Origin: a virus
Taxonomy: Duplodnaviria > Heunggongvirae > Uroviricota > Caudoviricetes
DNA length: 38,707 bases
Virus record (IMG/VR): IMGVR_UViG_2529292997_000008
Span: 1-38,707 of that record
Strand: one strand, 5' to 3'
The position numbers and the translations under genes were made by a program. The notes under the pieces were generated by a model. The model made no database searches. It saw nothing but the letters and a program-made list of their open reading frames with translations, and was not told the origin of the DNA. Shown piece after piece: positions 12,151-14,578 of this stretch. Within the stretch, counting starts at the first letter, position 1. Each line of letters starts with the position of its first letter.

Positions 12151-12690
12151 ATGAAAAATGATTACGGCGGCAGTCATACGCCGAAAGAAATAAAAGACCT
12201 ATGGCAGACGCCGAAACCTGTTTTTAGAGGAATGGATCGGGAATTCGAATTCGTCGCGGACGTGGCGGCAAACAAGGCAAATGCATTAGTTCCGCGATAT
12301 ATAACCGAAGAAATGAACACGCTTAATTACCCGTGGGGAGCGGTGGCGATGCCTGGTGAATATGTCTGGATGAATCCACCATATTCTAATCCGGGACCAT
12401 TCGTTGATAAGGCGGCGTTTGAACACCACCGAAATCATATTGGCTGTGTAATGTTATTGCCAGCCGACACTTCTGTTAGTTGGTTTATGAACGGCGTGGA
12501 GACGGCAAATGAATGCCGATTAATCACGCGCGGGCGGCTGGCGTTTATTAATGCCGCGACGGGTAAACCAGCAAGCGGAAACAATAAGGGGAGCTTGTTC
12601 TTGATCTGGCATCCACGGTGCAGACATGAATGTATTTTCACGCAGATAACACGTAAAGAGCTATATGCAAGAGGTGCAGATAATGACTAA
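12151..12690 (+). CDS. DNA N6-adenine methyltransferase, phage Dam family
   Basis: 179 aa; catalytic NPPY motif (WMNPPYSNPGPF); size and layout typical of small phage Dam-family enzymes. Confidence 0.75.
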   Translation: MKNDYGGSHTPKEIKDLWQTPKPVFRGMDREFEFVADVAANKANALVPRYITEEMNTLNYPWGAVAMPGEYVWMNPPYSNPGPFVDKAAFEHHRNHIGCVMLLPADTSVSWFMNGVETANECRLITRGRLAFINAATGKPASGNNKGSLFLIWHPRCRHECIFTQITRKELYARGADND

Positions 12691-13015
12691 GGCAGCAGAT
12701 TTATTGAGACTTGCAGCGGAAACCATAGAGCAAAGAGGTAAACAAAACGGCTACGACAAAAAAGAGGAAAAATCAGCGCCAAAAATAGCCACTATTTACA
12801 ACGCTAAGAAGGGAGCAGATTTAACCCCGCTTGATGTATGGGATCTGCTAATTTGTCTCAAGGAGGCGCGTTTAGAGGCCATTTTAAGCAATAAATCAGA
12901 TCCGACAGACACGCTAATTGATTTGATTAGCTATAACGCGCTAAAAGCGGAGCAAATATTAACGGAGCGGGAGGAAGCACAAAGAAAGAAACGGGCTGTT
13001 TTGATATACCGTTAA
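12683..13015 (+). CDS. hypothetical protein
   Basis: Track ORF 12665 trimmed to ATG after AGAGGTG RBS; overlaps methyltransferase stop. Confidence 0.5.
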   Translation: MTKAADLLRLAAETIEQRGKQNGYDKKEEKSAPKIATIYNAKKGADLTPLDVWDLLICLKEARLEAILSNKSDPTDTLIDLISYNALKAEQILTEREEAQRKKRAVLIYR

Positions 13016-13153
13016 ATTGCGGCTGTAAGAATGCCTCAATACCAGGCGACTTAATCGCCAGCAGCAAGGTAACGCTAAATAGTGTCCTTGCAAACAGGCT
13101 TGATGGTAAGTGTGATAACGAATCACTACTACGCGCGGCGGGGTATCATAAAA

Positions 13154-13657
13154 ATGGAAAGGGTGACAATTGACAGGTTATTGGCCTGCATTTATGTCGC
13201 CGTTTTCGTGATCATTAACCTTATTGTTAACCACTGCGGCCCGTGGGTAATTCCGATCACCACGGTAGCCGCCGTGTGCGTCAATATGATGATCCGTGAC
13301 TTCCTGTTATATGACGGCGGCCTGAAATGGTCGGCTACAACATGCGCCGCCGCTGGCGCAATCACGGTGCTGATAAACTACGATGCCGGGATGGTGGCGA
13401 TCGCGTCATTCGTCGCGGTTGTTTCCGGTGCGCTTATTTCTGGCGGTGTTTACCGGATTTTACCTGGCGATTTCGATTCAAAACGCTGGCCTGCGAATAT
13501 AGCGTCCGCCATTGGTGATGCGTTAATTTTTCCCACGCTATCGTTTATGGCATTTATGCCGGAAATATCAGCTATGCAATTCATCTCAAAAATGGCGGCT
13601 GTAACGGTGATCACTATCATCATTCGTCGCTATTTTACGTTCGAGGGTAGGAAATGA
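13154..13657 (+). CDS. polytopic membrane protein, possibly YhhQ/VUT-like transporter
   Basis: 167 aa, about 5 hydrophobic helices; loose resemblance to YhhQ from memory only, unverified. Confidence 0.45.
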   Translation: MERVTIDRLLACIYVAVFVIINLIVNHCGPWVIPITTVAAVCVNMMIRDFLLYDGGLKWSATTCAAAGAITVLINYDAGMVAIASFVAVVSGALISGGVYRILPGDFDSKRWPANIASAIGDALIFPTLSFMAFMPEISAMQFISKMAAVTVITIIIRRYFTFEGRK

Positions 13658-14418
13658 GTGGGCTTAGAAATTGGGTGGTGTGGTCGCTGTACGACGGCAG
13701 CGGGTACGCCGTTAAAGATTGGGCCGACGCTGGCTATAAGTGTTATTGTTTCAATTATGACGGCGCTAATCATGGCGATTATGAAGGCGTCAAGATCATT
13801 CATCCTAACATTGAATATGTCAACGTATGGATTGACAGCCATTTCCTGGTAATGTTCTCCCCTGAATTGTCTGTTTATCCAGATCCTGACATTATCCTGG
13901 GCTTTCCTCCGTGCGACGATCTTGCGGTGTCCGGCGCTCGTTGGTTTTCAAGCAAGCGTGAAAAAGATCCTTACTTCCAGCAGAAGGCGGCATACAACGC
14001 AAAACTGGTAGAAACGCTTGCTGACATGTACCACGTCCCGTGGATGGTGGAAAACCCGGTTGGAGCACTGTCAACGTTATGGCGTAAGCCGGATTTCATT
14101 TTTAATCCGTGCGCTTACGGTGGCTACCTGCCGGAAGATGATAAGCATCCAGCTTTCCCGGAATACATCGCCGACCGCGACGCCTACACGAAGAAAACTT
14201 GTATCTGGTGCGGCAACGGATTTAAACAGCCGCTATTTCGGCCTGTACCAATGCCTGATGAGTGGGAAGATAGTAAGCAGCACGCGAAGTTAGGCTGGAA
14301 GTCGAAGCGCACTAAGATGATCCGCTCACTCACGCCGCGAGGATTCGCCCGTGCTGTATTCCTGGCTAATGACCGGGCAATCACGCGGACTACTCTTAAC
14401 CGCGTTTTACCGGATTGA
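13654..14418 (+). CDS. compact C5-cytosine methyltransferase-like protein with PCD variant of motif IV
   Basis: 254 aa; motif I-like LYDGSGYA, motif IV GFPPCDD (PC then D instead of Q), motif VI MVENPVG; ATGA overlap with upstream gene. Confidence 0.55.
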   Translation: MSGLRNWVVWSLYDGSGYAVKDWADAGYKCYCFNYDGANHGDYEGVKIIHPNIEYVNVWIDSHFLVMFSPELSVYPDPDIILGFPPCDDLAVSGARWFSSKREKDPYFQQKAAYNAKLVETLADMYHVPWMVENPVGALSTLWRKPDFIFNPCAYGGYLPEDDKHPAFPEYIADRDAYTKKTCIWCGNGFKQPLFRPVPMPDEWEDSKQHAKLGWKSKRTKMIRSLTPRGFARAVFLANDRAITRTTLNRVLPD

Positions 14419-14440
14419 TGTTTACAAAATGGCGTCATTG

Positions 14441-14456
14441 TGTGATGCGGATCACA
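14441..14456. promoter_or_regulatory. CRP-type palindrome TGTGATGCGGATCACA
   Basis: Perfect TGTGA-N6-TCACA, lying between inverted TACAAAATGG motif copies in the 160-bp intergenic region. Confidence 0.4.
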
Positions 14457-14578
14457 TAATGGCGCTTTATTGTTTGTTCGCATGTATCCGTTTTGTATAC
14501 TTCAAACAAACAAAATGCTCTTTAAAAATCCGGTAACGCTGAAATGCGTAAAAATCACCTGAAAAAGGAGAGAGCATT

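Follow-up and report, generated by a model that had tools for sequence, protein, structure and literature searches.

The window analysed here, a stretch of viral DNA of 38,707 nucleotides, corresponds at 99.9% identity to a prophage in the chromosome of E. coli strain M15 and, in DNA sequence, shares 85–90% identity with the phages MagusPhagus, mEp010, mEp013, mEp021, mEp044, mEp515 and mEp554; MagusPhagus and the mEp phages are Nus-dependent 'mEpimmI' temperate coliphages (PMC11893012). Within it, genes for a Dam-type methyltransferase, a DUF6378 protein, a 6-helix membrane protein and the methyltransferase with which this study is concerned are followed by a terminator and by the genes for NinF/NinG, RusA and antiterminator Q, a gene order that is found again in mEp021 and in a more distant relative (L006). 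The Dam-type gene (12151..12690, + strand) encodes a phage N6-adenine methyltransferase (PF05869, E = 2.4e-52), a second orphan methyltransferase of this early-right cassette, and the DUF6378 gene (12665–13015, + strand) lies on its 3′ side. On an unrelated contig (L010) a DUF6378 gene is likewise found near a Dcm-like gene, which hints at a recurrent association of DUF6378 with phage methyltransferases. The membrane protein of 167 aa, with 6 predicted helices, is encoded at 13154..13657 (+ strand; the longest open reading frame runs from a GTG at 13082) and adjoins the gene for a compact, Dcm-like predicted DNA cytosine-5 methyltransferase at 13654..14418 (+ strand). Directly 3′ of the latter, a terminator-like hairpin (14431–14466) and its T-rich tail (14431..14476 in all, + strand) match the position of the annotated TERM_4 that follows gp33 in mEp021.

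The methyltransferase gene, an orthologue of mEp021 gp33, is an intact reading frame of 254 codons from ATG to stop. A search of a collection of 5.8 billion proteins returns homologues with E-values down to 3.5e-170, and comparison with the mEp021 orthologue gives a dS of 1.08 and a dN of 0.088 (dN/dS 0.08), so that this is a real gene under strong purifying selection and not a chance reading frame. Its product (RefSeq WP_001530101.1) is named a 'hypothetical protein' by PGAP/RefSeq in E. coli strain M15, while homologues of approximately 90% identity in other E. coli genomes are labelled 'DNA cytosine methyltransferase' and mEp021 gp33 is annotated as a 'putative DNA cytosine methyltransferase'.

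Family membership and conserved motifs

The protein matches phrog_757, 'DNA methyltransferase', over essentially its full length (residues 5–247, E = 4.6e-87), and PHROG 757 homologues align with it end to end. The family is large: in the collection of 5.8 billion proteins it forms 2,302 clusters when grouped at 90% identity, at 50% identity it has 2,133 representatives (982 of them with E <= 1e-10), and 1,516 of 50,697 phage records (~3%) contain a match. Its carriers include Drexlerviridae (KarlJaspers, AAS23), many Klebsiella, Salmonella and Shigella phages, RB49, the P1-like phage D6, and Vibrio and Proteus phages. The median length of family members is 231 aa, and the 5th and 95th percentiles are 226 and 253 aa. 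The preliminary description had called the protein unusually compact; it is indeed small at 254 aa, the canonical bacterial C5 enzymes of PF00145 such as E. coli Dcm, M.HhaI and M.HaeIII being ~320–470 aa long, but the size is not unusual, since the family itself is of this size.

Despite its abundance, this family is not covered by any Pfam or NCBIfam model, and the window protein finds no Pfam or NCBIfam match even at E <= 1. PF00145 is touched by 19 of 46 family members, the window protein not among them, and then only at profile positions 4–94 of 324, the N-terminal third being all that matches; over these same positions some relatives clear the gathering threshold with 24.7–28.5 bits against a cut-off of 22. 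The result is an annotation gap, in which a protein passed over by Pfam and NCBIfam and 'hypothetical' in RefSeq belongs to a family present in ~3% of sequenced phages.

Where the canonical enzymes present the motifs F-x-G-x-G, P-C-Q and E-N-V, the PHROG 757 family, of length class ~210–260 aa, presents in order F-D-G-S-G, F-P-P-C-T/D-D, E-N-P, W-R-K-P, Y-x-K-K-T-C and R-S-L-T-P-R-G-F-A, all of which are found in the window protein. The three motifs from which a C5-methyltransferase had originally been recognised (LYDGSGYA, GFPPCDD and MVENPVG) are thus located in the 254-aa reading frame in the order described. The motif I variant L-Y-D-G-S-G-Y-A (13687..13710, + strand, aa 12–19; family consensus F-D-G/Y-S/T-G) aligns with L-F-D-G-I-A-T-G of DNMT3B and presumably forms the SAM-binding loop. 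Motif IV, G-F-P-P-C-D-D (13900..13920, + strand, aa 83–89), contributes the predicted catalytic residue Cys87 (13912–13914), which is conserved in at least 90% of sequences and is equivalent by alignment to C82 of the Dcm of phage K42, followed by Asp88 (13915–13917). The motif VI variant M-V-E-N-P-V-G (14044..14064, + strand, aa 131–137) contains Glu133, the counterpart of K42 Dcm E128; E133, N134 and P135 do not vary at all in one family alignment (A1), and in another (A4) their conservation is 90% or more. Across the family P86-C87 and E133-N134-P135 are invariant or almost so, and the P-C pair aligns with that of DNMT3B and of E. coli Dcm.

Beyond motif VI, the family motif W-R-K-P is present at aa 143–146 (+ strand) and the C-terminal segment I-R-S-L-T-P-R-G-F-A-R-A-V-F-L-A-N (14320..14373, + strand) would form a motif IX/X-like helix of conserved residues. 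The R-S-L-T-P-R-G-F-A block falls within aa 223–235; in alignment A4 R224, P228 and G230 reach at least 90% conservation, N239 is invariant in A1, and Arg229 of R-S-L-T-P-R-G is invariant. Both W-R-K-P and R-S-L-T-P-R-G-F-A...A-N stand where they would be expected, yet no sequence method aligned either to the canonical motifs VIII (Q-x-R-x-R), IX (R-E) or X (G-N). Between them, aa ~150–220 (14101..14313, + strand) form the presumed target-recognition region, with the segments F-x-P-x-x-Y-G-G-Y-L and Y-T-K-K-T-C and a variable loop at aa ~191–215; from its position and by comparison with DNMT3, it may serve in DNA recognition. The Y-x-K-K-T-C motif occupies aa 178–183, K180 and K181 corresponding to K175 and K176 of K42 Dcm. 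In the structure model, residues 201–220 are of lower confidence. The earlier statement that little room is left for a target-recognition domain does not hold, as these ~70 residues are available and, the loop at aa ~191–215 excepted, mostly well conserved in the family alignment.

No part of the family varies more than the loop itself (14224–14298), which is flanked by G-N-G-F and K-S-x-R-T-K. At least two types of it occur, Y-S-x-Q-H-x-K-L-G-G and D-N-P-G-W-A-K-T-G-G; with D-S-K-Q-H-A-K-L-G-W the window protein comes nearer to the first, but the second is found in its relatives P0002 (86% identical) and P0005 (65%). This distribution suggests mosaic exchange in a candidate DNA-recognition loop.

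A second P-C motif, F-N-P-C-A-Y-G-G-Y (14101–14127, aa 150–158), belongs to the family segment F-x-P-x-x-Y-G-G-Y-L, in which Pro152 is invariant; the pattern F-x-P-C-x-Y-G-G-Y is easily taken for motif IV and can distort motif counts made with regular expressions. Approximately 6–7 of 123 family representatives (among them P0227, P0232, P0240, P0244, P0246 and P0260) have a serine in place of the catalytic cysteine (P-P-S-R/S/A-D) and keep the remaining motif; these members may be inactive or mechanistically altered.

Fold and distant relatives

The structure model presents a class I SAM-methyltransferase fold with the C5-methyltransferase arrangement, as had been proposed from the motifs. In the fold comparison the highest figure is obtained for DNMT3B (14.1), followed by DNMT3A (12.6), the carboxymethyltransferase CmoX (8yf3; 12.3), a prophage methyltransferase (3g7u; 12.0), ZMET2 (11.1), M.HhaI (11.1), M.MpeI (10.8) and M.HaeIII (10.4), and all 50 matches listed by Foldseek are chains of the DNMT3 family. 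The relationship is far fainter at the level of sequence. A phmmer search of the window protein against PDB sequences gives no match; a narrow family profile reaches DNMT3B at a non-significant E-value of 0.4, and with a broad profile the DNMT3 match is gone and M.HaeIII (E = 0.45) and Dnmt2 (E = 0.72) appear, again without significance. As the DNMT3B match is both non-significant and lost with the broader profile, the sequence affinity to DNMT3 is not robust, and only the similarity of fold is. An hhalign comparison of the family with E. coli Dcm aligns just 23 columns around the P-C of motif IV. The catalytic domains of mammalian DNMT3A and DNMT3B share 12–18% sequence identity with the window protein, a resemblance that establishes no specific evolutionary link; the DNMT3 enzymes act as oligomers with regulatory domains and have a CpG target. 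Since the sequence links to canonical enzymes are weak while the fold is similar, the family constitutes a branch of the C5-methyltransferase fold that is both divergent and streamlined.

The protein might be thought catalytically dead or repurposed for DNA binding, or else an RNA methyltransferase of the Dnmt2 type. This is very improbable given that Cys87, Glu133, Asn134, Pro135, Lys180 and the glycines of motif I are all kept, that purifying selection is strong (dN/dS 0.08), that DNA methyltransferases outscore Dnmt2 in the fold comparison and that the K42 homologue methylates DNA in vivo.

The proximity of CmoX in the fold comparison (12.3) raises another prospect, that of a C5-fold enzyme which moves a group other than methyl, for instance carboxymethyl from Cx-SAM, with Asp88 as the mark of the altered chemistry; in E. 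coli Cx-SAM is made by CmoA. In phage genomes CmoX is associated with cmoA, the gene of the Cx-SAM synthase, and/or with cmoY, the gene of an amide ligase, and in CmoX an arginine (R350) that touches the carboxymethyl group replaces the asparagine of motif X (N304 in M.HhaI). Neither cmoA nor cmoY is present in the annotated neighbourhood (~4.7–23.4 kb), the K42 homologue makes 5mC, and Asp at position 88 turns up in scattered parts of the family, all of which leaves very little likelihood for a transfer of this kind. In our reading the window protein is very probably a 5mC-forming DNA cytosine-5 methyltransferase of the Dcm-like family PHROG 757, SAM-dependent and carried by the phage as an orphan enzyme.

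The residue after the catalytic cysteine and the membrane protein

The preliminary description drew attention to Asp88 as a replacement for an invariant glutamine after the catalytic cysteine. Glutamine is not invariant at this position in C5 enzymes, as DNMT3B reads P-C-N-D: its S-P-C-N-D-L-S aligns column for column with P-P-C-T-D-L-A of the family, whose motif IV consensus is F-P-P-C-T-D-L. In an alignment of 114 full-length representatives at 50% identity that retain the cysteine, position 88 is Thr in 103 (90%), Asp in 6 (5%), Glu in 3 and Gln and Val in 1 each; among the 120 closest homologues it is Thr in 110 and Asp in 6. The six Asp-bearing representatives share 24–37% identity with one another, one pair at 62% excepted, and, when ranked by similarity to the window protein, stand 1st, 12th, 25th, 70th, 84th and 89th. 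As the carriers of Asp are scattered over unrelated lineages, the exchange of Thr and Asp must have been repeated, which argues for a tolerated substitution and not for a specialised clade, and Asp88 is read, from these alignments, as a tolerated replacement of the usual Thr. The alternative foreseen at the outset, that the size and the PCD variant are both ordinary among phage Dcm-like methylases producing 5mC, is therefore essentially borne out, with the qualification that Asp is a minority state of ~5% and that the characterised homologues are of the Thr type.

The membrane protein encoded upstream presents a second peculiarity of the locus. Its TGA stop codon overlaps the ATG of the methyltransferase gene (A-ATG-A) and is preceded by AGGGT, an arrangement from which the two genes are predicted to be translationally coupled. 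The collection of 5.8 billion proteins contains only 12 homologues of the membrane protein, and every one belongs to an mEp021-like prophage. Pfam Vut_1, the family of the queuosine-precursor transporter YhhQ, is matched below threshold by 6 of 7 of these homologues (best E = 5e-4), and the hhalign comparison with E. coli YhhQ is weak (E = 0.097).

These features allow the proposal of a two-gene module, in which the VUT/YhhQ-like protein would import a compound that the methyltransferase uses, as its cofactor or its substrate, to modify DNA in a distinct way. The overlapping stop and start codons favour it, as do the Vut_1 matches, the presence of Asp88 in the clade that has the membrane-protein neighbour, and the fact that the pair still adjoins in the diverged relative L006, where the two proteins are 54% and 65% identical to their counterparts here. 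However, the Vut_1 matches lie under the Pfam threshold and the YhhQ match is weak, adjacency within one phage lineage may be plain inherited gene order, and no such neighbour stands beside the methyltransferase homologues of KarlJaspers, AAS23 or L010, the last of the Asp type. Nor do the 18.8 kb around the pair (~4.7–23.4 kb of the window), as annotated by PGAP, contain a gene of the tRNA-guanine transglycosylase type (DpdA) or any other modification gene. Such a module is accordingly most unlikely, and the membrane protein, which is part of the same lineage-specific cassette, is probably one that the methyltransferase can do without.

It could also be supposed that the Asp88-type enzymes of the mEp021-like lineage, always found behind the coupled YhhQ/VUT-like gene, differ in function from those of the Thr type, either by another target or a relaxed specificity, the loop at aa ~191–215 being different, or by another, possibly imported, cofactor through which a non-methyl group would be placed on cytosine; we regard this as very unlikely. 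The notion that Asp88 and the VUT-like neighbour together mark one special clade was rejected as the principal reading, Asp recurring in unrelated branches and in L010 without the membrane-protein neighbour.

Characterised homologues and probable role

The best characterised member of the family is the Dcm of phage K42, a KarlJaspers strain. Gene bas06_0055 of KarlJaspers (Drexlerviridae; 711 bp) encodes a 'Dcm-like C5 cytosine methyltransferase' of 236 aa, which shares with the window protein its architecture, its length class, its membership of PHROG 757 and 59% identity over 234 residues. All escape mutants of K42 from retron Ec86/Eco1 disrupt the 711-bp dcm gene (10.1101/2023.08.16.553469), expression of the K42 enzyme is toxic only in cells that carry the retron, and LC-MS reveals high 5mC in Ec86 msDNA with the wild-type enzyme and not with the C82A/E128A/K175A/K176A mutant (10.1101/2023.08.16.553469). 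Changing a CCTGG site in the msDNA stem abolishes defence; CCWGG as the target of K42 Dcm was taken by its authors from analogy with E. coli Dcm, without site mapping (10.1101/2023.08.16.553469). Triggering of retron Ec86 by Dcm is handled as established in later papers. The four residues mutated in the inactive K42 enzyme (C82, E128, K175 and K176) are all kept in the window protein, where the alignment places C87, E133, K180 and K181 exactly opposite them. The two proteins differ in the residue after the catalytic cysteine (Thr in K42 Dcm, Asp here), in the variable loop at aa ~191–215 and in an 18-aa C-terminal tail present in the window protein; K42 is moreover a virulent T1-like phage which has no membrane-protein gene beside dcm.

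A second homologue, gp52 of Pantoea phage vB_PagS_AAS23 (235 aa, 54% identical to the window protein), is likewise of the Thr type and comes from a virulent Drexlerviridae phage of a different host. Its authors obtained no conserved domain with BLASTP and matches to C5-methyltransferases with HHpred, and reported AAS23 DNA to be Dam- and Dcm-methylated from restriction digests that included EcoRII; phage and host methylation were not separated and sites were not mapped, and because host methylation is not excluded this restriction evidence is indirect. For these methyltransferase genes the BASEL authors saw no simple correlation with restriction resistance, and neither the Druantia preprint nor a Klebsiella phage paper contains methylome data on this family. 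Both the formation of 5mC and the Dcm-type resistance to restriction enzymes thus come from homologues and not from the window protein, to which they would apply by analogy.

The chemistry of C5-methyltransferases, namely attack by cysteine, protonation by glutamate, methyl transfer and elimination, is established. If the window protein follows it, Cys87 of P-P-C would attack C6 of a flipped-out cytosine while Glu133 of E-N-P would protonate N3, the methyl group of SAM would pass to C5, and β-elimination would release 5-methylcytosine. Given its place in the early-right operon of a temperate coliphage of the mEp021 type, the gene would be expressed during lytic growth, alongside the Dam-type enzyme, so that replicating phage DNA would become methylated. 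The most plausible role, we infer, is that this methylation blunts host restriction. Regarding the target sequence, CCWGG is a possibility by analogy with Dcm, to be held with much less confidence than the assignment as a 5mC methyltransferase.

Thus the protein had been correctly recognised as a divergent C5-methyltransferase and there is nothing unusual about it: it is a routine orphan phage enzyme of a known and very common family. The family as a whole is very abundant in phages and has DNMT3A and DNMT3B as its closest structural relatives. Possession of such an enzyme also carries a cost in the triggering of retron Eco1 (Ec86); because family enzymes are a known trigger of this retron, mEp021-like prophages may be counter-selected in hosts that carry it.
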